From NCBI GenBank assembly GCA_964524845.1, contig CAZGFX010000001.1:139823-203822 (forward strand): a DNA stretch of 64,000 nucleotides, in the 5' to 3' direction. Each line of letters opens with the position of its first letter. The stretch's first letter is position 1. A model generated the notes under the pieces. It worked only from the letters and a program-made list of their open reading frames with translations. It searched no databases and was not told the origin of the DNA. The position numbers and the translations under genes were made by a program. This stretch comes from an uncultured Gammaproteobacteria bacterium (lineage in GTDB: Bacteria; Patescibacteriota; Patescibacteriia; CAZGFX01). Positions 1-51,035 of the stretch are shown in pieces.

Positions 1-3000
1 TCTTTTTTTGTGTTGTTTGTTTCTTTGTCATTGTTAGTGCGGGTTTCTGAGGATGTCCTGATGAAGATGATACTGATTGTTGTTTAAGAGGATCAAGTTC
101 AAGTGTGTCTGTGATATAGAGCATCTTGTCTTTTGTCTTATAATCTTTCTTTGGTGATGTGAGAGGAACAAATCCTTCTTTTTGCACGTTCACAGTATAT
201 GCCCCTGGAATTGCGGGCATCAAATACATTCCTTTTGGTGTTGAGAGGGTTGTATCGAGTGGACGACCATATTCAGCATCAAGTAAGCGTACGACCGCAT
301 AAGAAATACCTTTCTTATTTGTCTTTGTCTTGATAAATCCATACTTCACTCCCATTGTGCGACGTATGAAATAAGATATCGCTTTCGGCACAACAAGGTT
401 AACTATGAAGAGGATTAATGTAATATAATGAGGGGTGATTATAAATGCTATAGCACTCACCCATATACCAATTGTTGCAAGAGTTTTTGATAATGCATCT
501 CTCGAATACTCTTTTAATAACTTCTCTGTTTCTTCTTTTGTAAACTCTTCTTTATCAAGCGGGATCGGACGTATAAATGTAGTTTCGTTTTGTTTTATTG
601 TAACAGTTTCTCCTTTGTATATATTGAGGTACTGTCCATCATCGCTTGTACTAGCAAGCATTTTTGATGGGAAGACAAAGTGAGGTTTGCTTGCTTCTAT
701 ATAATAAGTTCCAGGTGGTAGTGTTAATACGTATTGTCCATTCTTATCTGTAACTTTTGTTGCAACGAGTTGTTTCTTGTTCTGTGTGATCTTATAAGCT
801 CTGATAGTTGATAATGGTAATGGTGCCTTCGTTCCTGAGTGATATACAACGCCGACCGAGATAGATCTTCTTCGTCTTGTAACAGCTGATGTTAATGCTG
901 TGAATAGTAATTGAATTGCTGGAAGCAGTGTTCCTGCTGATGCTGTTGCTGCCGCTGTGGCAGTTACAGCTCCTGCCGCTGCAATAGGAGCAGTGATCTG
1001 AGCTGTACGCTCTATAACAGGATTATCAAGCACTTCTTCTTGTATTGTGGTTAATGCTTTTTGTACAGGAGCTGGTGCTGATTTAATTATTTTTCTTATA
1101 CCAGCATCAATGTTTTTTGCTGTTGCAACAAATACTGAACCAATATTTCCTATTGGAGTTGATTCAACTATTGTTGTTACTTCTTCATAAGGACTTTCTT
1201 CTGTTGCTTCAAACAATCGTTCTGCGATAAGACCAAATACAGTGAAGTGATCCAGACGAGCTGATAATGTTTTTGTATTTGGATCAAATGTTGTTGGAAT
1301 TGTTGTAAGTGTTCCGTCATCTGCAACATATACGAGAGATAATGATTCCGGACGTATGTTTTCAAGAACTTTATCTGTTAATTGTATAGAGCATTCAATC
1401 GCTTTATCGTTAGCAAAATCAGTATAAATCTGATTTATATCCGTTTGAATTGCTGTTATATCAATAAATGTTCCGTCAATTGGATTTCTCATAAAATCAG
1501 AGTTTGTGAAAGCTATATCTGATAATGGTTTTTCATTAAATGAGAATGACAGAGGAACCGTAACTGTTCCTGGAATTGTAAGGGTATAAACGATACCTGA
1601 ACCAAGAAGAGCAGGAATAGCAATTGTCATTGGCTGTCCTTCAGATGGTGTATATAGCATATCAAGTGATAGTGGAGTCATATTTTCTCCGTATTGAGAC
1701 TCTGTTGTAGGACCTGTGAAACTGTCTATTAGTGTTTCAAAGAAGCCACCTTCATCACCTCCTGTTGTATCTCCACCTGTTGTGTCTCCTCCTTGATCTC
1801 CACCAGTGGTATCACCGCCCGTTGTATCTCCACCCGTAGTATCACCACCAGTAGTGTCACCTCCGGTTGTGTCTCCGCCTGTGGTATCGCCGCCTGTAGT
1901 ATCACCTCCTTCGTCACCACCTGTTGTGTCTCCTCCTTCATCACCTTGATCGCCCTGATCTCCATCATCGCCTTCATCTCCACCTGTTGTGTCGCCTCCT
2001 TCATCGCCCTCATCGCCGCCAGTTGTATCACCTCCTTCATCTCCACCGGTTGTATCACCGCCAGTATCTCCACCTGTATCACCACCAGTTGTTCCACCAC
2101 CAGTATCTCCTCCACCTGTTGAACCGCCACCGGAAGATCCGCCGCCTCCGCCGCCTCCGCCGCCACCTCCACCGCCACCGGATTGATATGTTGTTGTACC
2201 ATATGAACGAGCATTTAACGTCGTATATGGACCAAACAATGTTGGTGTCGATGTTCCATCAGAGTTTGAAAGTGTTACTTTAAACTGAATGTAAACCAGA
2301 TTCTGATTTGTGTTAAGTGGAGTTGAATAGTCAACAAATGTTCCTGAACACGTTGGCGACTCACACTGTCTGTATTGAAGTGCTATTGTCGTATTTGCAG
2401 GAGTCAATGATGTTGCTCCCATACTTGTTGTCTTCGTTGGATTTCCGACAAATAGCGGTCTGAATGTTACAGAGCCTGTGTTTGCTGCCGGATCTGTAAG
2501 ATTAAATACACCGCTTGCTGATACAGTTATATTTTCAAGCGTCGTTGTTTCAGTATTGTTCTGACTTATAAACGATGATGAGAGTGATAAATCTCCTGTA
2601 CTTGTTCTGGCTCGAACTGTAATGCTCTTTGTGCCGTATGAAGATGTGCCGCCTATTGCACTGCTTGTTATATTTACAACGGAGTTTGTCGTAACATCAA
2701 CTGCGGCTGGTGAGATTGTTTTTATAGCACCGAACGTCATACCATCGGCCGCAAAAGAAACTTGATCTATTGTTTCTCTGTTTGATTTCGCTATCAATGA
2801 AATAGTCGTATCGGCCGTAGATGTGGTTTCCGGTGGCATGACAGCACCTACAACAGGATCTGATGTACGCGTATCAGCACGTACCACATCTGATGGAGCT
2901 GAGTTTGAATGTGCTTCGCCGATAAGAGCAAATGACATTACACGATACTCATACACAAATCCTTTCACAATATCAGTATCTGCGTATGTGGTTGCGTTTT

Positions 3001-6000
3001 CTGCAGTATCACCAAGTGTAACATACGAAGATTCTCCCGCTTTTCTTCGTTCGACCGTATATCCATTTTCTCCAGCAACATCATCCCATGAAATATTTAC
3101 TCTGTTTATTGAATGGTCATATGACGCACTAACACCTGTTGGTGTTGGTGGGGCTGGGTTTGTAACAGGAATTGCAAGAGGAGGCGCCGAAGGAACTGAG
3201 TGAAGAGTAACCATACCTACCGTCTTATCCGCCATAATACGATAATTATACGTATTTCCTGAAACAACAGTACTATCATTGTATGATGTTACGTTTGCAT
3301 CACGAGTTACCAATGTAGTATATGAACCATCTGTGGAAAGTTTTCTTTCTATTGTATATCCTGTCTCATCGGCAGTATCATCCCACGATAATTCAACTCG
3401 ACTTAGCACGTCATTATAATCACCTGTAAAGTTTGTCGGCGTGGTTGGACCCGGAATAGCGTCATATGCTACGAATACGGCATCAAGTGTTGGAGTATCA
3501 CCAAACACATCAGCATCAAATGATGCGCGAATCCTCAAATCACTCGTAACTGTAAATGTCGCTTGAGTTGCCTGAGTTAATGGAACCCATGTGTTCCCTC
3601 CGTCTCTACTATATGAATATGTTATATCTGTGTCTGCTGGTTTTGAATCAACTACTGAGAGTGCTACGTTATTTGCATACGTACCACCAGGAAGAATATT
3701 TGATGTCGAAAGAGTACCTGTTCCTGAAAGATCGTTTGTTTGTACTAATCTTGAATAATTATTGTCTCTATCCCATGTCATAACGATCGTATCATTAAAC
3801 ACGACTTCATTAGAATAGTTTCGTGAATAATGTTCTACGCCAGGAGCAGACGTACCCGAAACAACGTCATATCCAACAACAGAGTCATCAGATGGTTTCA
3901 CCCATTGATGTGTAACGGTATTAAATTTACTAAGCACCGTATCAAATCGATCGCCCGGACTCTCTTCCCAGTACGTATACATTGAACCACCTATAACGAC
4001 TACATTACACCACCCATAATCTGAATTATTCTGTACAGTACTTGAAATAATATCATACCCAACTGTATCATCACTTGGTTTAATCCATGTATTATTGCTT
4101 GTTTTCAACTTTGAAACAAGAAGTTTTCTGTCATTCTCTGTCCAAAATACATGTAGTTCGTTATTATATACTACTGGACGCGCTCCAAAACTAGATATAT
4201 TACCTGTTTCTGCAACTTGATCAAAACCAACTGCTCCATTTGATGGTTTCACCCATGCGCCACCAGAAAGTTTTGATACTACTATATCATAGGAGTTGCT
4301 TGCCACGATAAACTGAGACCAAAACACATACACGCTTCCGTTGTGATATATTGGTCGTGGCATTTTTGGATTAGTACCAACTGTTCCCGGATTCAAAACA
4401 TCAAATCCCGATACTCCGTTTGATGGCTTCACCCATCCATGACCAATGTCATCGAGCTTCGTAAGACACACATGAGAATCATCTCCATCTATGGCACAAC
4501 CTGATGTTCCAATATATGGGACTCCATTTATATTGCTTATTGTCACGTCGCGCGCTGTCGCTCCAGTAATTGCATCTGGATTATTAAGAATATTTCCCGC
4601 AGGAGATCTCCACTCTGATCCATCGTATCTAATTACTTCTATATTATTTGTCGTGCTATTATACCAAGCAAAATACAAATATCCTCCTGCTTCTATCATG
4701 GACAAACCATCAGGATAAGCAGTCGGACTTTCTAGAATCATATCGCTTCCTATAATAGTAGGGGCTGATGGTTTTACAAATCCATCGAGAGTACTACTAT
4801 ATTTGCTTACAGATATATTATGGCTACCATATCCTTGCCATGCAATATACAACTCATTATTATATGTTCCAACCATTAGATCCTCGTATGGTCTCGGATC
4901 TATAACTGTATTTACAATCTCAAAATCATCTGACCCACCAGTACCAGTGATATAAGCATAATCTCCAGAAACAAAAACCGATATCGGATTATCAATAACC
5001 GATCCTCCGTCTCCATCTACAATATTATCTGCATGAACAGGAGCGGTTGGAACTGATATATTTACAACCTCAAGGGCATCTGAAAGTCTGCTAGCAATAT
5101 AAGCATAATTTCCTGATACGAATATTGATCTTGGATCATTGAGTAATGCTCCTCCGCTTCCATTCGAAAGCCTTCCTCTATGGATAGGATTTGCTTTGTT
5201 TGTCACATCTATTATATTCATCGTTCCTGATGCTGTAAGATATGCATAATTTCCAAATACGTACACTGATGTTGGAGATATAAAATTTACTCCACCATTC
5301 AGTTTTCCTGCATGAACAGGCGCAGTCGGAACTGATATGTTTATTATTTCAAGAGCATTTGATCCACCCACAACATAAGCATAGCTTCCTGACACATATA
5401 CTGATAGAGGATAAGATAAGGCTGCGCCACCAGTACCATCAGTAATGCTTCCCGCGTGTGAAATATTTAGAGGATCAGACACATTTATAATTTCAAGCGC
5501 ATCGTCTCCTCTAGCTGTTACGTATGCATAACCTCCTGATACGAACACCGAGGATGCATGACGAAGTAATGTAGGACCAGTATCACGATTCTTTATATAA
5601 TCAGCAATAATAGGATTTGCTGGATCTGATATATTAAATACATAAAGGGCTCCCCAATGAGACATGGTTAACGTGTCGTTTCCTCCTGTTGTTACATAAG
5701 CATAATTTCCTGAAACAAACACCGATGTTGGTTGTCCATAACCAAATTCCTCCCAAAAAGTAGGCTCTACTGAATTACCTCCAACATACACGGGATTTGC
5801 TGGATCTGATATATTTAATATCTTCAATAAATATGTATCGGACGTTGGCCCATCTCCCCCTGCAACATAAGCATAATTTCCTGAAACGAAAACCGCATAT
5901 CCTCCGTATTCGCTACTTCCTTTGTGTTCTACTCTTCTTTGTAAAATCGTTTCATCATACGTCGCAGCTGTTGGAAGTTTTACGTTTCCAGCACCTGTAT

Positions 6001-9000
6001 CAATAACTGTATTATCAGCAACAAGTGTTCCGTCGGGAGCATCAAACGATGTATCATACACTTGTGTCTTCGTGTAGAACGAAACAGTGTTTGAAGTTAC
6101 CGATTGAATAGGACCATTAACAGCGTATATACGAACAGCATATGTTGCACCGGCCGTAAGACCTGCAAGAGGAATAGACTCTACATCCTCTCCTGGAGTC
6201 GCACACGTTGAAAATCCTCCACCATTCACAGAACACTCCACAACGAAATTTTCTTCATCGTCTGAATTGTCAGTCCACGAAAGATCGATGCTAGTGTCGG
6301 TAATATTATCAAACGCTAAATTTGTCGGGGCATCTGGAGGAGTGATTATGTTCGCCGAGATAATAAGATTATCAAGAGAAGGACTCGTACTAAGCGCTGT
6401 TGATGATAAGTTAGCACGCACCCTAAGTGTTCTCGTTGGTGTCAAAGGTACGCTAACGGATGGAGTTATACTCGTCCATGACGATCCGCCGTTTGTTGAG
6501 TATTCATATGTTATATCAGTATCCACCGGTTTTGTTTCCGTAACTGTGATCAAAACCGAGTCTGCATATTGAACAGGACTTTGCGCAATCACATTATCTG
6601 TTGTAAGCGTTCCTGTCAGAGTAACATAAGGATTATTATATGATAATTTTTTCACAATAATATCTCCCGCGCTTGTGTCTCTATGAATAAGAGCTCCTGT
6701 ATTTCCAAAAAATACGAGGGTATTTGCTGTACCGCTTGCGCTGTGTGTATCAACAGAAATAGTATTAAAACCATTTGTTCCGTCAGATGGTTTTTTCCAC
6801 GCACTACCACTTCCCATAACAGAAAGCACCTGAACTGGTTGACCCACAACAGGTTCTTCAAACCAAGATACATAGAAACTTCCTTTCTGAATATTTACAG
6901 ACGGATGATAACTATCTTGTCCTGGGGTACTTGAAACAGAATCAAATCCCGTACTTCCGTCAGATGGTTTCTTCCACGAGTGATCACTTGAATCATAATA
7001 TGACACAACTATTTCGCGTGAACCACTTGCTCCTTCTTCCCATACTGCGTACATCGTATTGTTCCACGAGATAATATACGGATTAACACTTATTGCTGGA
7101 GTGTTTGAAATCGCGTCATATCCTGCCGTATCATCACTTGGTTTTACCCATGTGTGAGACGTTGTGTTAAATTTAGATATTACGATTTCAGTATTTCCAT
7201 CATCATTTATATCTCGATCCCGTATCAAATAAAGATCGCCGTTATGAGTCGTTAGACGAGGAAATTCATCCTCGTTTGCATCACTACCAATACTATCATA
7301 TCCTACCGTATCATCACTTGGTTTTACCCATGCTCCTCCTGAAAGTTTCGTTATACAAATATCAGGTTGTCCTCCTATCGTACACTGAGATGCTATATAT
7401 GGAACATTATTTACATCATATATAAATGGTTGTTGTGCTCCTACTGTATAAACAGTATCATTTCCTGCTAAACCAGTACTAGGAGCAACCCACGAAGTTC
7501 CATTAAATTTCGAAACATGGAGATCCGTATCATCAGCGACCCACATCACATATGCTTCGTTATTAACAGTACCAGCTGTCAAAAACGTGTAATCAATACC
7601 TCCTCCAGTGTTCGTGAGATTATCAAAACCGGCTATTGTTGGAGCAGTCGGTCTGGTCCATTCTGAAAATGCCGCGTTAGGACGCGAAACACGAACATCG
7701 TCACCCTGATTCCAAGCTGCAAAAACCATAGAAGATGTAGATCCAATAGAAACTTCTGACACAGTCGTTCCTGTTGTTATGTTTTTCGGTATTGTACTTA
7801 AGTTTATTATTTCAAGTCCGCCAAACTGAGAGATTCCATCCCCTGATTTTGTAACAGAAACATAATTTCCTGATACGAAAACCGATGTTGGAATCATCAT
7901 AGAAGCGCCACCTTCTCCATCGCTCACACTTTCCGCGTGTTTTGGATTTGCTGGATCTGATACATCTACAATCTCGAGAGCGCTTGAACTCTGACTTGCA
8001 ACATAAGCATAATTTCCTGAAACATAAACAGATACTGGTGTATCTAATAATGCTCCTCCTACTCCATTTACAATACTTCCCGCATGCACTGGATTTGCTG
8101 GATCTGATATATTAATAATTTCAAGTGCGTTTGAAACTTGACTCACAACATATGCATAACTTCCTGATACAAAAACTGAGCGAGGATAAATCAATAAGGA
8201 ACCACCTGACCCATGTGTTATATTTCCAACGTGTGTCGGATTTGCTGGATCTGATACATCGATTATTTCTAAGGCGTTTGAGTTTCGAGCTGTAACATAC
8301 GCATAATTTCCTGAAACATAAACTGAATTGGCATAATCCAACAACGCACCTCCTGTTCCGTGCGAGATACTTCCAACCTGTGTTGGATTTGCAGGATCCG
8401 ATACATCAAATATTCCTAAATTTCCTCCTATTCCAAACCAAGCATTCTCGTCAGTTGCAACATATGCGTAATTTCCCGACACGAAGACCGATTGAGGATT
8501 AATCAACGAGCCACCAAAAACACCTCCTGTGTGAGTCGGGTTTGTCGGATCTGACACATCAACAACCTCTAGATATCCTACACCAAATCCACTAGTTCCG
8601 CCTCCTACAACGTATGCGTAACCTCCTGATACAAAAACGGACAATGGCTCAAAAAGAAGCGAACCACCACCCAAATCTTCTCTTGTTAAACTTCCTGCAT
8701 GAACTGGATTTGCTGGATCTGATATATCAACGACCTTCAAAGCATTTGATACTGTGCTTGCTATATATGCATAATTTCCATCAACAAAAACAGAGTTTGG
8801 ATTTTCAAGTAATGATCCAATATCATTAGTAATACTTCCTACGTGTGTTGGATCTGTTGGATCAAAAACATTTAGTATTTCAAGTGCATTAGAGTTTGAA
8901 CTTGCAACATACGCCGTAGTTCCTGATACAAAAATAGAATAAGCATAATCTAACAGAGCTCCTCCCGACCCATGCGATATGCTTCCAAGAGGAGTTGGAT

Positions 9001-33546: not shown

Positions 33547-34437
33547 TTAACGCTTCAAAATACTTGATATTCTTCTCAAATCTCCTGGAGTCGAATATGT
33601 TATAGAAACACTTCCTTTTCCGTTCTTGTCATTAATAACTACTTTTGTTCCAAGTGATCGTGAAAACTCCTTTTCCAAAAGAACGAGGTCTGCTCGCTTA
33701 ATATTAAGTATTGATACCGAGGATTTTGCATCATGTTTTTTTATAACCTTCTCAGTATCACGGACCGTCATTCCGGCCGCAAGTATTTGTTTGTATAATT
33801 GAATTCGTTCTATATCATTTCCTATTGCGAGAATGAGTTTTGCATGAGCAAATGTCAGACGTCCTTCTGCAAGAGCCTTCTGAATCTCTCCTGGTAGCTC
33901 GAGAACGCGAAGTGTGTTCGCTACGGTCGAACGTTTCTTTCCAAGACGTTTCGCCGCTTCGTCTTGTGTAAGACCGAATTCATCAATCAATTGTTTATAA
34001 CTTTGAGCAAGTTCTATAATATTAAGATCCTGACGTTGTATATTTTCAATGAGTGCGAGTTCCAACTTCTCCATCTCTTCCGCTCGTTTGAGAATCACCG
34101 GCACCGTTTCAAGTCCGGCTTCACGAGCGGCGCGTAGACGACGCTCACCTGATATGAGCTGTACTTTATCCGAATGAGGATCTTTTGAAACAACTAACGG
34201 CTGAATAATTCCGTGCTGTTTGATTGATTCTACAAGACCCGATAATTCCTCTTGATCAAAATTGCGGCGCGGCTGATATGGATTAACATCAATATTATCA
34301 ACTGGGATATATAAAATGTTTTGTTCGTTCTTTTTTCCTGTTGGAAGAATAATCCGATCTATCTGTGTTTCGGCTGTTTTTATTCTGTGCGGGATAAGAG
34401 ATCCTAGTCCTTTTCCAAGCGGAGATTTGTTATTCAT
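33547..34437 (-). CDS. parB: Chromosome partitioning protein ParB (Spo0J)
   Basis: ParB box GERRLRAAREAGLETVPV with an HTH region; 13 nt downstream of parA. Confidence 0.9.
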   Translation of the reverse strand: MNNKSPLGKGLGSLIPHRIKTAETQIDRIILPTGKKNEQNILYIPVDNIDVNPYQPRRNFDQEELSGLVESIKQHGIIQPLVVSKDPHSDKVQLISGERRLRAAREAGLETVPVILKRAEEMEKLELALIENIQRQDLNIIELAQSYKQLIDEFGLTQDEAAKRLGKKRSTVANTLRVLELPGEIQKALAEGRLTFAHAKLILAIGNDIERIQLYKQILAAGMTVRDTEKVIKKHDAKSSVSILNIKRADLVLLEKEFSRSLGTKVVINDKNGKGSVSITYSTPGDLRRISSILKR

Positions 34438-34448
34438 ATATATAAATT

Positions 34449-35228
34449 TTATGTTTCGTTTTTTTCCATTGCGATTATTTCTTTTGCAAGCGCCTCATAC
34501 GCAGCCGCGCCGCGAGACGAAGCATCATAAAGTGAGATCGGCTTCCCAAAAGAAGGCGCTTCAGCGAGTTTCACGTTACGCGGAACCACTGATGAAAAAA
34601 TTCTATCAGGAAAATGATTTTTTAGCTCTTCAAACACAGCCTCCGAAAGTTTGTTTCGCCCGTCGTACATAGTAAGTACAGCGCCCAGAATACCTACTTT
34701 TGGTTGAAGATGCTTTTGAACTAGATATATCGTATGAAGTAATTGTCCTAGTCCTTCAAGCGCATAATATTCACATTGAACAGGTACTAGAATTTCTCTA
34801 GCCGCAACAATTCCATTAATTGTTAGAAGTCCTAGTGTCGGCGGACAATCAATAATAATATAATCATAAAAACTCTCTATTTCTTTCAAACAATCCTCTA
34901 GACGAAATTCTCTTCGGGCCTCTTCAACAAGTTCAATATTCGCTCCAGCGAGATTCGGAGTACTTGGAGCAAGATGTAATCCATCAATTGTTGTAAGTTT
35001 CAACACATCTCTCATCTTCACACCACCGTTAGTAGTCATGACTTCATACATACCCTCGCCGACCGAAGCATGATCAATACCAAATCCCGAGCTCGCGTTT
35101 GCTTGTGGATCAAGATCAACTACCAACACTTTCTTTCCAAGTGTCGCTAGATATGCGGACACATTAATTGCGGTCGTGGTCTTCCCGACCCCGCCTTTTT
35201 GATTTACAATAGCTATTGTTCTAGGCAT
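34449..35228 (-). CDS. parA: Chromosome partitioning ATPase ParA (Soj)
   Basis: Deviant Walker A NQKGGVGKTTTAINVSAYLA. Confidence 0.95.
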   Translation of the reverse strand: MPRTIAIVNQKGGVGKTTTAINVSAYLATLGKKVLVVDLDPQANASSGFGIDHASVGEGMYEVMTTNGGVKMRDVLKLTTIDGLHLAPSTPNLAGANIELVEEARREFRLEDCLKEIESFYDYIIIDCPPTLGLLTINGIVAAREILVPVQCEYYALEGLGQLLHTIYLVQKHLQPKVGILGAVLTMYDGRNKLSEAVFEELKNHFPDRIFSSVVPRNVKLAEAPSFGKPISLYDASSRGAAAYEALAKEIIAMEKNET

Positions 35229-35401
35229 GATAGAACTTTAAAAGTATTATGTGGCCTTATCTTACTAAAAAATCATAATTTATTCAACGACGGAAACACC
35301 ATTTCAAGGCGTGATTAACACATATAAAAAGAGTTGATTTAATTGGCTAACATAGTATACTTTCTATCGTTAGAAATGAATGCTTTTATTAATTTATACA
35401 T

Positions 35402-35779
35402 GCCCGGATGGCGGAACTGGTATGCCTGATCTAGTTTATCCCGTTCGCGGGACTTTGCGGGATACCAGGCAGGCATTCTGCAATCAGATGCGGCCTCCGC
35501 CGCAATCTAACATTTGGCCCTCGTTTGCTTCGCGCACTCGGGATGCAGTAGGCCTGATCCCGCTTTGCGGGATACCTGGCAGGCATTCTGCAAGAGGATC
35601 CCGCCACCGCGGGAATCTAACATTTGGCCCTCGTTTGCTTCGCGCACTCGGGATGCAGTAGGCCTGATCCCGCTTTGCGGGATACCTGGCAGGCATTCTG
35701 CAAGAGGATCCCGCCACCGCGGGAATCTAACATTTGGCCCTCGTTTGCTTCGCGCACTCGGGATGCAGTAGACGCGCAG
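35402..35779 (+). repeat. Interrupted partial copy of tRNA-Leu. Nucleotides 1-21 (35402-35422) and 22-30 (gacgcgcag, 35771-35779) are split by a GC-rich array of 3 tandem units of 129, 110 and 110 bp at 35423-35770. Units 2 and 3 are identical; unit 1 is diverged with compensatory hairpin changes.
   Basis: Direct sequence reading. The units begin gcctgatcc... and end ...cactcgggatgcagtag. Predicted plus ORFs 35380..35872 are repeat artefacts. About 10 nt of 5' leader is also duplicated (tttatacatGCCCGG vs ttttacatGCCCGG). Confidence 0.85.
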
Positions 35780-35822
35780 AATAAAAAGAAGTACATTATT
35801 AGAAAGAGTTTATATTTTACAT

Positions 35823-35910
35823 GCCCGGATGGCGGAACTGGTAGACGCGCAGGACTCAAAATCCTGTTCTAGATAATAGAGTGAGAGTTCGATTCTCTCT
35901 CCGGGCACCA
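35823..35910 (+). tRNA. tRNA-Leu(CAA), class II with a long variable arm and encoded CCA
   Basis: Folded by hand: acceptor GCCCGGA/TCCGGGC, 3-bp D stem GCG/CGC, anticodon stem CAGGA/TCCTG, loop CTCAAAA, T arm GAGAG-TTCGATT-CTCTC, discriminator A, CCA. Confidence 0.9.
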
Positions 35911-36052
35911 GCCTTCGCTCTGCGAGCTACGGCTGGCGCAGCCAGTCGTAAAGCGAGCAGCTAAGAGAAGTGCTAGTCCTTCCGAAGTTCCGCGAAGTGG
36001 AACGAAGGAGGACACAATTCTTTTTTTGTACAACAAAACATTTCTCACACAT

Positions 36053-36128
36053 GGCTAGGTAGCTCAGTTGGTAGAGCACAGGACTCATAAGCCTGCGGTC
36101 GCGAGTTCAAGCCTCGCCCTAGCCACCA
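36053..36128 (+). tRNA. tRNA with CAT anticodon, elongator Met type (possibly tRNA-Ile2/lysidine); G1-C72 paired; encoded CCA
   Basis: Acceptor GGCTAGG/CCTAGCC, D arm GCTC-AGTTGGTA-GAGC, anticodon loop CTCATAA, T loop GTTCAAG. Confidence 0.85.
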
Positions 36129-36130
36129 AT

Positions 36131-36165
36131 TAAAAAACACCCTTTGCAGGATGTTTTTTTATTTT
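36131..36165. terminator. Bidirectional rho-independent terminator (aacaccctttgcaggatgtt flanked by A-run and T-run)
   Basis: Hairpin with one mismatch followed by T7. The reverse complement gives a hairpin plus T-run for the convergent minus-strand gene ending at 36184. Confidence 0.7.
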
Positions 36166-36183
36166 CAAAAAATTTTTCTTATA

Positions 36184-37335
36184 TCACTCAGAATTATCTT
36201 CTTCCCAGGCGCCATTTCTGAATCTAATTACATTAAGCGTTCTTTTCGAATTTCCTTTTTCATTAAATTTCAATGATCCGGAAATACCGTTGTAATTGGT
36301 TTTCAATAACTGATTAGCAATACATTGTGAGTCTCTTATTTTTCCTTCTTTCTTACACGCAGAAATTGCATCAGTCAAAACATATATATCGTCATACATA
36401 TATGCCACATCAGCCGCTGGCTTTCGTCCATATTTCGCTTGATATTTCAGAGAAAAATCTTTTTGTTCTTGGTTGAAACCAGTTTCTGTAACCCAGTGCC
36501 AAACACTTACTGATTTATTTTCTTCAAAAAGCGCTTTCGTATCATCGGTATTTGCAACAGGAAGAAACGGAGCAATCCAATGTAATATCGGGGTATTTAT
36601 CATTCCCATTTCTTTTACTTGTTTCATTAGAATATGCTCGTGTCTCCATGCACATACTACAATTGCCTCGGATTTCATTTCTTTTATCTTTAATAATGGC
36701 GTCTTGAGATCCGTGCTTGTTGAATTGTATGTTTCTTTACCAACAAGAGTCACTCCATTTCCTTTTATACCATCCATAAACCCTTGTTCATATTGTAAGC
36801 ACTGATCACTTACTTCAGATAGAAAAGCAATGTTTTTATACCCTTTTTTTATTACAGTTTCAGCCACTAATGATCCGCTGTCTCCTGCATCGAAATAATC
36901 TCTAAAAAACAAAGGGTTGCTTTCTGCAATATCACGAACGGTTGATGCATAAAACATTACTTTATTATTATCTGCAACTATTGTTTTAACCGCATTTGTA
37001 ATGTTTGTAAAAGCTGAAATAATAATATCAGCTTTATCAACAGTAAGCATTTTCGAAACTGTGCTAGCAGCTTGTTTCGGTTCGCCAGCATTATCTTCTG
37101 TTACAAGTTTAATAGGCGTTCCATCAATTCCTCCTTTTGCATTTATTTCTTCAACTGCCATACTCATTCCATGAAATTCCGCCTCACCTATATATGCCAA
37201 ATTACCAGATAAGGCCAATGTCGCTCCTATAACAATTGGTTTTTCGGTTTCGTTGTTTTTTGTATCCTTAAAAAACACATATCCTACAACAATTACTATA
37301 ATAATACCTAGAACAATAACAATTTTTTTATTCAT
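36184..37335 (-). CDS. ABC transporter substrate-binding protein, periplasmic-binding type I (branched-chain amino acid LivJ/LivK-like), membrane-anchored
   Basis: N-terminal TM helix, then IVIGATLALSGNLAYIGEAEFHGMSMAVEEINAKGGIDGTPIKLVTEDNAGEP, typical of the PBP1/Leu-Ile-Val-binding family. Confidence 0.85.
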   Translation of the reverse strand: MNKKIVIVLGIIIVIVVGYVFFKDTKNNETEKPIVIGATLALSGNLAYIGEAEFHGMSMAVEEINAKGGIDGTPIKLVTEDNAGEPKQAASTVSKMLTVDKADIIISAFTNITNAVKTIVADNNKVMFYASTVRDIAESNPLFFRDYFDAGDSGSLVAETVIKKGYKNIAFLSEVSDQCLQYEQGFMDGIKGNGVTLVGKETYNSTSTDLKTPLLKIKEMKSEAIVVCAWRHEHILMKQVKEMGMINTPILHWIAPFLPVANTDDTKALFEENKSVSVWHWVTETGFNQEQKDFSLKYQAKYGRKPAADVAYMYDDIYVLTDAISACKKEGKIRDSQCIANQLLKTNYNGISGSLKFNEKGNSKRTLNVIRFRNGAWEEDNSE

Positions 37336-50596: not shown

Positions 50597-50819
50597 CATG
50601 GAGAGGTGGCCCTGATACGTTCTAGCTAGCGCCAGAACTACAGGACAAAACCTTTCTAAAAAGTTTCTACTAGGAATTATTTGTTCTTTATAATATTATT
50701 TCATCATATGGAGAGGTGGCCCTGATACGTTCTAGCTAGCGCTAGAACTACAGGGCAAAACCTTTCTAAAAAGTTTCTACTAGGAATTATTTGTTCTTTA
50801 TAATATTATTTCATCATAT
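50597..50819 (+). repeat. Two tandem 111-bp and 110-bp units preceding tRNA-Ser. Each unit starts with the first 12-14 nt of the tRNA (atGGAGAGGTGGCC) and then 97-99 nt of non-tRNA sequence ending in a TATAAT-containing promoter-like segment.
   Basis: Direct reading: units at 50597-50707 and 50708-50817, with 2 mismatches between them. The third iteration is the intact tRNA. Confidence 0.85.
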
Positions 50820-50910
50820 GGAGAGGTGGCCGAGTTGGCTGAAGGCACCACATTGCTAACGTGGCAGGGAGTAAAATCCCTCGGAGGTTCGAATCCTCTC
50901 CTCTCCGCCA
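50820..50910 (+). tRNA. tRNA-Ser(GCT), class II with a long variable arm and encoded CCA
   Basis: Acceptor GGAGAGG/CCTCTCC, anticodon loop TTGCTAA, variable arm CAGGGAGTAAAATCCCTCG, T loop TTCGAAT, discriminator G. Confidence 0.9.
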
Positions 50911-51011
50911 TAGATTTGACAGGCTCGCCGTAGGTGAGGCTATCAAATCTATTGATAGGATAGAGAGGATGAGAAGTTTATGCCCGGAGTCACGAAGTGA
51001 CGAACGGGTAA

Positions 51012-51035
51012 ATCCTCTCCTCTCCGCCATAGATA
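51012..51035 (+). repeat. Exact 24-nt duplicate of the tRNA-Ser 3' end (aatcctctcctctccgccatagat; the original is at 50892-50915), 120 bp downstream. This resembles an att-like 3' fragment or a further tandem-repeat unit.
   Basis: Direct reading. The intervening 96 nt contains hairpins (gtcacgaagtgac). Confidence 0.85.

Follow-up and report, generated by a model that had tools for sequence, protein, structure and literature searches.

A GC-rich hairpin array within a disrupted 5′ copy of tRNA-Leu(CAA) upstream of parAB, possibly a locally amplified palindromic module of REP/BIME-like form

Results

Organization of the locus between parA and the tRNA-Leu/tRNA-Met operon

The locus lies in a 64-kb stretch of DNA that was analyzed as a whole and is called the window below. 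The minus strand carries parA (34449-35228) followed by parB (33547-34437), and divergent from parAB the plus strand carries an operon of an intact tRNA-Leu(CAA) (35823-35910) and a tRNA-Met(CAT) (36053-36128), both identified by ARAGORN and Rfam, with a terminator-like hairpin after tRNA-Met (36128-36163). Upstream of the live tRNA-Leu gene on the plus strand is a dead 5′ copy of it, recognized by direct-repeat comparison as 13 nt of leader plus tRNA nucleotides 1-21 (35389-35422), and this copy is separated from its remainder, tRNA nucleotides 22-30 (gacgcgcag; 35772-35780), by a tandem array of three units. An earlier sequence-only reading of this DNA had described the same order of parts, with nucleotides 1-21 and leader at 35402-35422 and units of 129, 110 and 110 nt, and we confirmed it in the sequence; the spacer before the live gene, however, is 42 nt (35781-35822) and not 43 nt. 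That reading had also placed a ∼58% GC array 170-550 bp upstream of parA in an AT-rich genome, and we found 58.7% GC for the array versus 37.5% for the window, with the array 195-543 bp and the dead tRNA fragment 173 nt from the parA start.

TRF reported a single array (35453-35771; period 110, 2.9 copies, 95% matches, score 575). Its plus-strand units are unit 1 (35423-35551, 129 nt), in which hairpin 1 is longer by a 19-nt insertion and hairpin 2 is another allele, unit 2 (35552-35661, 110 nt) and unit 3 (35662-35771, 110 nt), the last two being identical over all 110 nt. In unit 2, hairpin 1 spans 33 nt (35552-35584; GCCTG-AT-CCCGC TTT GCGGG-AT-ACCTGG-CAGGC) and hairpin 2 lies at 35597-35617 (GAT-CCCGC CACC GCGGG-A-ATC), and a 48-nt constant part ends in GCAGTAG. 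Folded as DNA, hairpin 1 reaches −15.3 kcal/mol (z −4.6; 0 of 200 shuffles folded as stably) and hairpin 2 has a z of −2.9. Neither strand of the unit resembles tRNA-Leu.

The boundaries of the units coincide with a short motif shared with the tRNA. GTAG stands immediately 5′ of hairpin 1 in units 2 and 3 (35548-35551 and 35658-35661), and the unit-to-unit junctions read GCAGTAG/GCCTGAT (the slash marks the junction). Unit 1 has GTAT instead of GTAG, formed by the GGTA of the tRNA plus T, and its tRNA-derived 5′ flank CTGGTAT pairs with ATACCAG. At the other end, the terminal GTAG of unit 3 merges with the D-loop GTAG of the tRNA. The outer junctions of the array are CTGGTA/TGCCTGAT and GCAGTAG/ACGCGCAG, where the tRNA itself reads CTGGTAG/ACGCGCAG; therefore, the array consists of complete units only, with the D-loop GTAG at its borders. 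The insertion point is exactly the D-loop GTA/G, and the units themselves end in GTAG.

Differences between unit 1 and units 2 and 3 had been read as compensatory changes in both hairpins. For hairpin 2 this was correct: the stem in unit 1 (GCGGC-CTCC-GCCGC, 35487-35507) differs from cccgc-cacc-gcggg by two pairs flipped from G-C to C-G (alignment columns 68-81 and 70-79), and the chance that four random stem substitutions would keep five of five pairs is ∼0.005. For hairpin 1, the proposed change from cccg-ttcg-cggg to cccgc-ttt-gcggg is instead a 19-nt indel, which in unit 1 makes an extra hairpin while the 3′ arm ctttgcggga is kept. The broader claim, that conserved pairing is a signature of selection, depends on two base pairs in one comparison, and complementary stem variants are also typical of REP and other palindromic repeat families (PMC3733652). 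Because there are only two distinct unit sequences, covariation statistics do not apply (shuffle control, 134/500). Both hairpin stems consist of Watson-Crick pairs throughout, with no G-U, so nothing in them favors RNA over single-stranded DNA, and fold strength is nearly equal on the two strands (z −1.9 and −2.1).

The array is recovered in an independent assembly

A tandem array with two identical units could be an assembly artefact, for instance through collapse or expansion of repeats or through the tandem joining of strain variants. The number of units is open to this doubt since units 2 and 3 are identical and cannot be counted by short reads, and two independent Logan contigs (SRR12133403) both break within the 48-nt constant part. 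However, these contigs reproduce unit 1 and both unique outer junctions, the left one running from tRNA nucleotide 21 into unit 1 and the right one (L099) from the unit end into acgcgcag. Such breaks are what a true repeat yields in a k-mer graph, the transition from unit 1 to unit 2 requires at least two different units in tandem, and the tRNA-Ser structures described below were likewise recovered in Logan contigs. We conclude that the repeat is real, although the count of identical units is not fixed by the Logan contigs, and that an artefact is barely credible as an explanation of the array.

The dead copy marks the ancestral position of the tRNA gene

The direct repeat that relates the dead copy to the live gene is 34 nt long (35389-35422 versus 35810-35843) and 91% identical, with 10 of 13 leader positions and all 21 tRNA positions matching. 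Over the whole dead fragment identity with the live gene is 30/30 while the leader has diverged, and selection on the fragment could account for this. The 42-nt leader of the live gene is collinear, with deletions, with 35324-35401, the DNA 5′ of the dead copy; the alignment score of 46.3 compares with 31.1±3.5 for shuffles (p = 0.0005) and also exceeds that of 111 of 111 AT-rich control windows. On these scores, the live leader is a shortened homologue of that DNA. A sigma-70-like match in that upstream DNA (TTGATT-16-TATACT, 35334-35361, plus strand) is a candidate for the ancestral tRNA-Leu promoter; it comes from a consensus scan that gave 4 sites in the region versus 1.7 expected, which is weak evidence. 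No plus-strand terminator is predicted between this match and the live tRNA at 35823.

In the relatives L012, L013, L014, L091, L093/94, L095 and L096, tRNA-Leu(CAA) lies 71-221 bp upstream of parA and divergent from it. It is therefore the dead fragment, at 173 bp from parA, that occupies the original site of the gene, and the live gene is the copy that was displaced. Relatives with matching synteny have leaders of 14-45 nt and no array, and in L093 the leader is 140 nt and GC-rich. The 142-nt spacer between tRNA-Leu and tRNA-Met (35911-36052, plus strand) includes ∼100 nt of GC-rich (59%), strongly structured DNA (z −4.0); because the relative L096 has just 14 nt at this place, the spacer is probably a separate insertion.

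A covariance analysis of homologous arrays, as the sequence-only reading had suggested, found nothing to work on in the collections searched. A ParA scan of GTDB genomes together with a ParA homologue search gave no close relative (best identity 63-65%), so there is no orthologous array to compare and a covariance model is not worthwhile. The search for the 110-bp unit elsewhere was equally negative: a 25-mer of the unit had 0 matches in GTDB species genomes, a 20-mer had 9 matches in JGI metagenomes, all of them chance matches of 20-26 nt, and the unit pattern had 0 matches in IMG/VR. The array showed no coding signal, and the open frames of both strands, translated, matched nothing among 5.8 billion predicted proteins. 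Neither the unit nor its hairpin motifs recur in the remaining 63.6 kb of the window, where shuffles expect 0-0.3 matches.

Parallel duplications at tRNA gene ends

Similar structures flank tRNA-Ser(GCT), 15 kb from the Leu array. Upstream of this gene are two tandem 110-nt units, 98% identical (50598-50817, plus strand), each beginning with AT plus tRNA-Ser nucleotides 1-12 followed by a hairpin (CCTGATAC-GTTCTAGC-TAGC-GC(C/T)AGAAC-TA-CAGG); the unique junctions of this array were confirmed by Logan contigs. A tandem promoter amplification was considered for these units and rejected, as a scan found no plus-strand promoter inside them. At the 3′ end of the gene, a 24-nt direct repeat flanks 95 nt of hairpin DNA (50892-51034, plus strand; z −5.6), is contiguous with it in an independent Logan contig, and consists of the 3′ 19 nt of tRNA-Ser, from T-loop to CCA, plus 5 nt of trailer. 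Among the relatives, L015 has a tRNA-Leu 5′ pseudo-fragment with two small inserts and L096 a duplication of the tRNA-Met 3′ end. Tallied together, there are five such events (three in the 64 kb, two in relatives) among ∼18 non-redundant tRNAs, and none at the 13 tRNAs of non-Patescibacteria loci once matches to neighboring tRNAs were excluded. The Leu unit, the tRNA-Ser 5′ unit, the tRNA-Ser 3′ insert and the post-Leu spacer have no significant similarity to one another, so their shared CCTGAT foot and equal 110-nt period are not evidence of homology.

L015 also contains a dispersed palindromic family (CTCCCCC-TAAA-GGGGGAG) with at least 12 copies in 6.9 kb. Like the hairpins of the Leu array, its members are GC-rich, lie in AT-rich intergenic DNA, cluster between parA and tRNA-Leu(CAA), and adjoin a disrupted 5′ pseudo-copy of tRNA-Leu(CAA). 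Their sequence is unrelated, however, and the L015 copies are ∼19 nt long and dispersed, without 110-nt units.

Comparison with known repeat systems

The closest formal parallel is with REP sequences and their composite BIME units, which are reiterated in tandem along with flanking DNA (PMC3733652). In the E. coli ppc-argE BIME array, which we analyzed for this purpose, GTAG-tagged REPs occur two per unit with a period of 123 bp, 2.8 copies and 97% identity. The Leu array likewise is a tandem of composite units on a ∼110-123 bp scale with more than one GC-rich imperfect palindrome each, is close to the ppc-argE array in copy number and identity (2.9 at 95% versus 2.8 at 97%), has GTAG directly before a first palindrome with a bulged stem, whose 33 nt fall within the 20-40 nt typical of REPs, and at the foot of this palindrome (GTAGGCCTGAT) agrees with the E. 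coli REP (GTAGGCCGGAT) at 10 of 11 positions. In contrast to REPs, it is not dispersed but confined to one locus in 64 kb; GTAG-tagged hairpins number 6 in the window versus 3.7±2.0 expected, which is chance level. Successive REPs of a BIME alternate in orientation; hairpin 2 is near symmetric and followed by CTAAC, not CTAC, so that it lacks an inverted GTAG tag and has no definite orientation. REPs are found mostly downstream of genes, but the array occupies a tRNA pseudo-fragment on the upstream side of one, and the genome is small, AT-rich and Patescibacteria-like, unlike that of the proteobacterium E. coli. A scan of 20 unassigned window ORFs against Pfam revealed neither a Y1/HUH transposase (RAYT) nor an integrase.

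A second parallel is the E. coli tyrT-tyrV operon (rtT/rttR, tpr), in which we found 3.1 copies of a 178-bp repeat, each terminated by the last 19 nt of tRNA-Tyr, from T-loop to CCA. In both cases tandem GC-rich units directly adjoin a tRNA gene and have copies of a tRNA end at their borders, and co-transcription with the tRNA is predicted here. The resemblance is closer at tRNA-Ser, where the 3′ duplication begins at the T-loop position of the tyrT-tyrV repeat (AATCC...CCA, 19 nt) and the 5′ array has a tRNA fragment in every unit, as in the rtT type. The Leu array, unlike rtT, has tRNA pieces at its two outer edges only and none at internal boundaries, it lies 5′ and not 3′ of the gene, and neither the Rfam rtT model nor other sequence similarity was detected (E≤10, 35250-36200).

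Four other identities were considered and rejected. A CRISPR array does not fit because the units are head-to-tail without unique spacers and units 2 and 3 are identical. ATCTAAC fits the RYYYAAC of an integron attC site, but ∼0.2 chance matches are expected and no partner GTTRRRY is present. The hammerhead-like CUGAU...GCGGGAUAC has a core without GA/GAAA, and no ribozyme model matched. The cumulative GC skew does not turn at the array, as it would at an origin of replication.

Discussion

The sequence-only reading had offered a structured RNA, partition sites and the footprint of a small mobile element that targets tRNA genes as possible identities. The last of these, widened to include duplicative elements, fits best, given the ancestral gene position, the insertion at GTA/G and the parallel tRNA-end duplications. 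We tentatively favor the explanation that the array is a locally amplified GC-rich palindromic module, REP/BIME-like in form, within a dead 5′ remnant of tRNA-Leu(CAA), a reading that we hold at a little less than even confidence. The array does not look like a centromere or a known RNA; it looks like one of several rearrangements in this lineage that duplicated tRNA gene ends.

The proximity of parAB raises the possibility that the palindromes are duplex binding sites (ParB sites, centromere-like iterons or operators). Plasmid centromeres such as sopC are tandem repeats with inverted repeats, and the array offers six to seven palindromes of 17-21 bp at 195-543 bp upstream of parA. Yet no sequence in or near the array comes within ≤3 mismatches of the 16-bp parS palindrome (TGTTNCACGTGAAACA), the best matches in the window (2-3 mismatches) being elsewhere. 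The half-sites moreover change between unit 1 and units 2 and 3 with pairing kept, the opposite of what a sequence-specific dimer needs; since the flips alter both half-sites, what is conserved is a single-strand hairpin and not a duplex site. Relatives with parA-parB-relA synteny have nothing comparable 5′ of parA, and embedding in a tRNA fragment points to insertion and not to a component of the par locus. We therefore regard partition or operator sites as very improbable. A stronger case, though one we still consider unlikely, can be made for the array as a functional RNA structure within the leader of the tRNA-Leu/tRNA-Met operon. Its hairpins would then be selected as RNA, whether for processing or stability, for control of tRNA output or as part of a stable small RNA that RNase P sets free. 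The array lies between the promoter match and the tRNA with no terminator predicted, its hairpins are strong, hairpin 2 has the two compensatory flips (P ∼0.005), further GC-rich structured inserts occur by tRNAs (the post-Leu spacer and the 140-nt leader of L093), and E. coli rtT is an earlier example of an RNA that derives from repeats and is set free from a tRNA operon. Against this, only tRNAs reached the gathering thresholds of Rfam 15 (the best match of the array was RsmY, 10.8 bits, E 6.4), both strands fold equally well, G-U pairs that would mark the transcribed strand are absent, and no collection searched contained a homologue. Relatives of the same synteny lack the array, which is thus not a conserved part of the operon, and the fact that units 2 and 3 are exactly alike speaks for recent amplification and not for long selection.

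Alternatively, the 421-bp block made up of the array, tRNA nucleotides 22-30, the new leader and tRNA nucleotides 1-21 could be the remnant or miniature of a site-specific integrative element that targeted the 5′ half of tRNA-Leu(CAA) and rebuilt the 5′ end of the gene, with the direct repeats (35389-35422 plus 35772-35780 versus 35810-35852) as att sites and the array as cargo or recombinase-binding DNA. Tyrosine integrases commonly cross over in the anticodon-stem region, and the dead copy ends there (nucleotides 30-41) in the window and in L015 alike. Each repeat combines a tRNA end with a short stretch of flanking sequence (34+9 nt for Leu, 14 and 24 nt for Ser, similar in L015 and L096), with one dead and one live copy as in att duplications, and tRNA gene fragments usually stem from the integration of mobile elements (PMC9897764). 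Several features are nonetheless at odds with this model. The array interrupts the att-like copy itself, which would require either a secondary origin of the array or a permuted element; without the array only 29-42 nt lie between the repeats, and in the other cases 95-165 nt. Near-complete loss of a large island, several times over, is improbable. It is the 5′ end and leader that are duplicated and not the 3′ end, the repeats are 72-421 bp apart without integrase or cargo genes, and the ORFs within the 421 bp have no homologues. The att-like strings of the tRNA-Leu and tRNA-Ser repeats had 0 matches in IMG/VR. To our knowledge, integrases regenerate the 3′ part of a tRNA and not a 5′ part with its promoter. 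The homologous old and live leaders fit a local duplication equally well, and we consider the integrative element a rather improbable source of the block.

If the array is an amplified palindromic module, a series of steps can be proposed. Synteny shows that the gene first stood ∼70-220 bp upstream of parA, divergent from it. A head-to-tail duplication of ∼110 bp, comprising some 78 nt of upstream DNA and tRNA nucleotides 1-30, would then have left a dead 5′ copy at the old site and an intact gene downstream, and the second leader may later have lost ∼36 nt. A hairpin module of 110-129 bp would next have joined the dead copy at the D-loop GTA/G, and as the module ends in GTAG, the join would have used 3-4 nt of microhomology or a GTAG-directed enzyme acting on single-strand DNA. 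We infer the order, duplication before insertion, from viability: insertion into the live copy would abolish the tRNA, and the module is tolerable in the dead copy only. The module was reiterated in tandem, as the identity of units 2 and 3 shows, with unit 1 an older or different allele whose hairpin 2 was replaced as a block. The array is probably co-transcribed: the candidate ancestral promoter would place a ∼450-nt leader on the tRNA-Leu/tRNA-Met precursor; this leader RNA, predicted to be removed by an RNase P cut, would be a by-product like that of E. coli rtT, with no required host function. On this amplification model the hairpins would persist because spread or expansion of the module, or hairpin-templated repair, acts on folded single strands. 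No homologue was found in GTDB, JGI metagenomes, IMG/VR or predicted proteins, and any mobility of the module is therefore hypothetical.

A bolder proposal, which we think doubtful, is that Patescibacteria harbor an undescribed class of ∼110-bp duplicative insertions that would home in on tRNA genes at the D-arm or T-arm (here of the class II tRNAs Leu and Ser) and restore the gene end that they interrupt, unusually even the 5′ end with its leader. The GTAG-tagged hairpins would be the recognition structures of a trans-acting single-strand DNA recombinase, and the Leu array would be an active element multiplied at its own GTAG end and not a relic.

The finding has practical consequences, as such tRNA-linked structures interrupt short-read assembly, every Logan contig ending at one of them, and are liable to mis-annotation as tRNA pseudogenes or ncRNAs. 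The recurring tRNA duplications and their ∼110-bp scale point to a systematic process at the tRNA genes of the lineage, either replication slippage or an unknown recombinase. If our preferred explanation of an amplified module is correct, a dead tRNA fragment would be a safe landing pad that records insertion events, and even the very small, streamlined genomes of Patescibacteria would gather hairpin modules and short tRNA-gene duplications.

Results

Anatomy of the Leu array

The Leu array consists of three tandem GC-rich hairpin units that split a dead duplicate of the tRNA-Leu(CAA) 5′ end. The dead copy and the intact tRNA-Leu(CAA) gene (35823-35910) share a 34-nt direct repeat (35389-35422 and 35810-35843), made up of 13 nt of leader (10 of 13 identical) and tRNA-Leu nt 1-21 (21 of 21). 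Unit 1 (35423-35551, 129 nt, set in register) is followed by units 2 (35552-35661) and 3 (35662-35771), which are identical and 110 nt long; Tandem Repeats Finder placed a single array at 35453-35771 (score 575, period 110, 95% matches over 2.9 copies). Directly 3′ of the array is tRNA-Leu nt 22-30 (gacgcgcag, 35772-35780), separated from the intact tRNA-Leu by 42 nt of AT-rich DNA. The array is a whole number of units set exactly at the D-loop GTAG, between GTA and G, and the units themselves end in GTAG. The identity of units 2 and 3 points to recent tandem reiteration.

This arrangement (tRNA fragment, units of 129, 110 and 110 bp, nt 22-30 and intact tRNA) is the one described in an earlier sequence-only reading, and it was borne out, as were a GC-rich array in an AT-rich genome (58.7% GC versus 37.5% for the window) and its placement upstream of parA (195-543 bp). 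parA (34449-35228) and parB (33547-34437) lie on the strand opposite to tRNA-Leu. Two Logan contigs, from an independent assembly of SRR12133403, recovered the junctions on both sides: tRNA nt 21 to unit 1 on the left and the unit end to acgcgcag on the right. Both contigs end within the unit's constant 48 nt, as true repeats make contigs of a k-mer graph do. The repeat is genuine, with the Logan support covering its junctions rather than the number of identical units. With the tRNAs and one low-complexity coding stretch set aside, no GC-rich islands of the 64 kb stand out more than the array and the spacer that follows tRNA-Leu. That coding stretch, repeat-rich and at 1780-2200 (minus strand) inside a giant ORF of >3,400 aa running off the window start, is the strongest GC island (up to 71% GC) and is unrelated to the array.

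Hairpins of the unit

The 110-nt unit comprises hairpin 1, hairpin 2 and a 48-nt part that is unchanged in all three units and forms only a weak hairpin. Hairpin 1 (GCCTG-AT-CCCGC TTT GCGGG-AT-ACCTGG-CAGGC) is a bulged palindrome of 33 nt and directly follows the GTAG that closes the preceding unit; hairpin 2 is GAT-CCCGC CACC GCGGG-A-ATC. Folded as single-stranded DNA, hairpin 1 gave a z of −4.6 and hairpin 2 a z of −2.9 to −3.4. Because the whole unit folds almost equally on both strands (z −1.9 and −2.1) and all stem pairs of both hairpins are Watson-Crick, RNA and single-stranded DNA are indistinguishable here, as is the strand.

Compensatory changes between unit 1 and units 2 and 3 had been claimed for both hairpins. 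The claim holds for hairpin 2, in which two pairs are flipped from G-C to C-G (estimated P = 0.005 for four random stem substitutions preserving all five pairs), but not for hairpin 1, in which unit 1 carries an indel, a 19-nt insertion that forms a small extra hairpin yet leaves the unit-2 hairpin's 3′ arm in place. A shuffle control for compensatory change (134 of 500) is uninformative with just two distinct unit sequences. Unit 1 departs from units 2 and 3 mainly within 20 columns (9 of which differ) that lie beside 48 identical bases, a pattern that looks like replacement of a hairpin block rather than scattered mutation.

Several identities for the array were rejected. A known RNA was discarded because Rfam recognised only tRNAs at its gathering thresholds and, even at E ≤ 10, no credible family in the array. 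A coding array was discarded as well, since a search of 5.8 billion predicted proteins turned up no relatives of its open frames and the period of 110 is not divisible by three. The unit is unrelated in sequence to tRNA-Leu, and no skew turning point lies at the array. The sequence-only reading had proposed looking for the unit elsewhere; it was not found in GTDB species genomes, JGI metagenomes or IMG/VR, and nine metagenome matches were 20-26-nt chance matches.

Displacement of tRNA-Leu

In the host, which is Patescibacteria-like, the genes run topA, relA, parB, parA. No orthologous array was available for comparison, because the closest ParA relatives, several of them labelled Uhrbacteria, Komeilibacteria or Patescibacteria, are only 63-65% identical. 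At related loci (L012, L013, L014, L091, L093/94, L095 and L096), tRNA-Leu(CAA) lies 71-221 bp upstream of parA and divergent from it. In the window the dead fragment is 173 nt from parA and the live tRNA-Leu 594 nt, and thus the dead fragment marks the ancestral position, from which the live gene was pushed 421 bp. The live gene's leader (35781-35822, 42 nt) can be aligned in collinear order, allowing deletions, with the 78 nt that precede the dead copy (35324-35401); the score is 46.3 versus 31.1±3.5 for shuffles (p = 0.0005) and above all 111 AT-rich control windows. This alignment fits an original head-to-tail duplication of ∼108 bp, comprising upstream DNA and tRNA nt 1-30.

The gap between tRNA-Leu and tRNA-Met (36053-36128) is 142 nt in the window. 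Because the same gap is just 14 nt in L096, this strongly structured spacer is probably a further, separate insertion. The spacer (35911-36052) contains ∼100 nt at 59% GC with two long hairpins (z −4.0) and one G-T pair on the plus strand.

Duplications of tRNA ends

All tRNAs of the window and the compared loci were scanned for copies of their own ends. Two end duplications accompany tRNA-Ser(GCT) (50820-50910) in the window. Upstream are two tandem 110-nt units (50598-50817, 98% identical), in each of which AT and tRNA-Ser nt 1-12 come first and a hairpin (CCTGATAC-GTTCTAGC-TAGC-GC(C/T)AGAAC-TA-CAGG) comes next. These units differ at 50633 (C/T) and 50645 (A/G), and the C-to-T difference in the hairpin converts an A-C mismatch to an A-T pair. 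Downstream (50892-51034), a 24-nt direct repeat (AATCCTCTCCTCTCCGCCATAGAT), consisting of the last 19 nt of tRNA-Ser (T-loop to CCA) and 5 nt of trailer, brackets 95 nt of strongly structured hairpin DNA (z −5.6). Independent Logan contigs confirmed all unique tRNA-Ser junctions and the entire 3′ duplication, the latter contiguously within one contig.

A related MAG contig (L015, JAACEG010000012.1), labelled Lysobacteraceae but AT-rich and with a tRNA-Leu 86% identical to that of the window, carries upstream of its live tRNA-Leu(CAA) a 5′ pseudo-copy (nt 1-8, 15-36 and 37-41) broken by two small inserts, in the D-arm and the anticodon loop, both starting CCCAGCAC (features at 5196-5345, minus strand, and 5760-6000). 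Its 805-bp parA-tRNA interval is filled with dispersed palindromes (CTCCCCC-TAAA-GGGGGAG). They belong to a REP-like family, CTCCCCC-(T/A)3-4-GGGGGAG, which occurs at least 12 times across three intergenic regions (3405-3500, 5773-5960 and 6775-6900) of the 6.9-kb locus in this Patescibacteria-like genome. In L096 (1905-2179; synteny parA-parB-relA), a second copy of the tRNA-Met 3′ end (CAAATCCGGCCCCC) lies 163 nt further downstream than the gene, and the DNA in between is richer in GC. No end duplications were found at 13 tRNAs of non-Patescibacteria loci, matches to neighbouring tRNA genes being set aside.

The inserts at tRNA-Leu, at tRNA-Ser and in the spacer are unrelated in sequence, and the CCTGAT foot and 110-nt period common to the Leu and Ser arrays are therefore unexplained coincidences, not homology. 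A scale of ∼110 nt is common to both 110-nt arrays, to the presumed Leu duplication (78 + 30, ∼108 nt) and to the 3′ duplication at tRNA-Ser (119 nt); we know of no mechanism that sets this length.

Two other related loci have structures near their tRNA genes. In L093, two copies of a hairpin element with a long AT-rich stem and GC-rich loop (2530-2590 and 2880-2960; caaatttctgctt-gggccggagcgaagcggagg-ttaagcagaaatttg and cagttttgcgctt-aactccgctacgcggagccc-aagcgcaaaactg) flank tRNA genes, and the tRNA-Leu leader is ∼140 nt and GC-rich. The L092 contig (1-157) stops 157 nt upstream of parA, within an opposite-strand tRNA-Met, and between the two lies a tRNA-3′-end-like piece (ggttcaaatcccgctctacaa), possibly another tRNA fragment.

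Comparison with E. coli repeats

For direct comparison, we retrieved the tyrT-tyrV and ppc-argE loci of E. coli K-12. In the region annotated rttR/tpr, downstream of tyrV, a 178-bp unit occurs in 3.1 copies, and every copy closes with the last 19 nt of tRNA-Tyr, from the T-loop to CCA. The window's tRNA-Ser structures have the same design, whereas the Leu array is alike in part only, having tRNA pieces at its outer edges alone. ppc-argE contains a BIME array (2.8 copies of a 123-bp unit, 97% identity) in which the unit holds two GTAG-tagged REPs in opposite orientation (GTAGGCCGGATAAGGCGC...). The Leu array resembles it in its GTAG tag, bulged GC-rich palindrome and composite unit, is close in period, copy number and identity, and has a hairpin foot, GTAGGCCTGAT, that matches at 10 of 11 positions. 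REP subfamilies include complementary stem variants and undergo tandem reiteration with flanking DNA (PMC3733652), and RAYT transposases recognise GTAG plus a hairpin on single-stranded DNA (PMC8266576). The Leu array is BIME-like in form but cannot be filed as a BIME, because the 64-kb window has no other copies of the unit, its GTAG-tagged hairpins are at chance level (6 versus 3.7±2.0 expected), hairpin 2 is untagged, and no transposase or integrase was found among the 20 unassigned ORFs of the window that were scanned.

Discussion

The history that we favor, tentatively and at a little under even chances, begins with a ∼110-bp duplication of upstream DNA and tRNA nt 1-30 that would have made the dead 5′ copy. 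A hairpin module may then have joined this copy at GTAG, either through microhomology or by a single-strand enzyme directed to GTAG; had the live copy been joined in this way, the tRNA would have been lost. Unequal exchange or slippage could have amplified the module locally. A promoter match at 35334-35361 and the lack of a predicted terminator before 35823 suggest that the array is transcribed as a ∼450-nt leader, which RNase P would cut off.

Among the alternatives, a functional leader RNA seems unlikely, and somewhat more so the remnant of an integrative element, or a miniature one, that rebuilds the tRNA 5′ end. The sequence-only reading had offered a structured ncRNA, ParB or iteron sites, or a small tRNA-targeting mobile element, and it is borne out in part: a small tRNA-associated element fits best of these three, and a centromere does not fit. 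A parS centromere was rejected since no parS-like site (≤3 mismatches) lies in or near the array, and a sequence-specific duplex-binding protein is unlikely because the hairpin half-sites change between units while their pairing stays, so that ParB or operator sites appear very improbable. Least probable is an assembly artefact, given that both unique junctions recur in the independent contigs.

The array is a variation on two familiar designs, the BIME-like palindromic array and the tRNA-linked repeat, in an unusual host and position. The main point of interest is that short duplications of tRNA ends, and the ∼110-bp scale, recur in this lineage.
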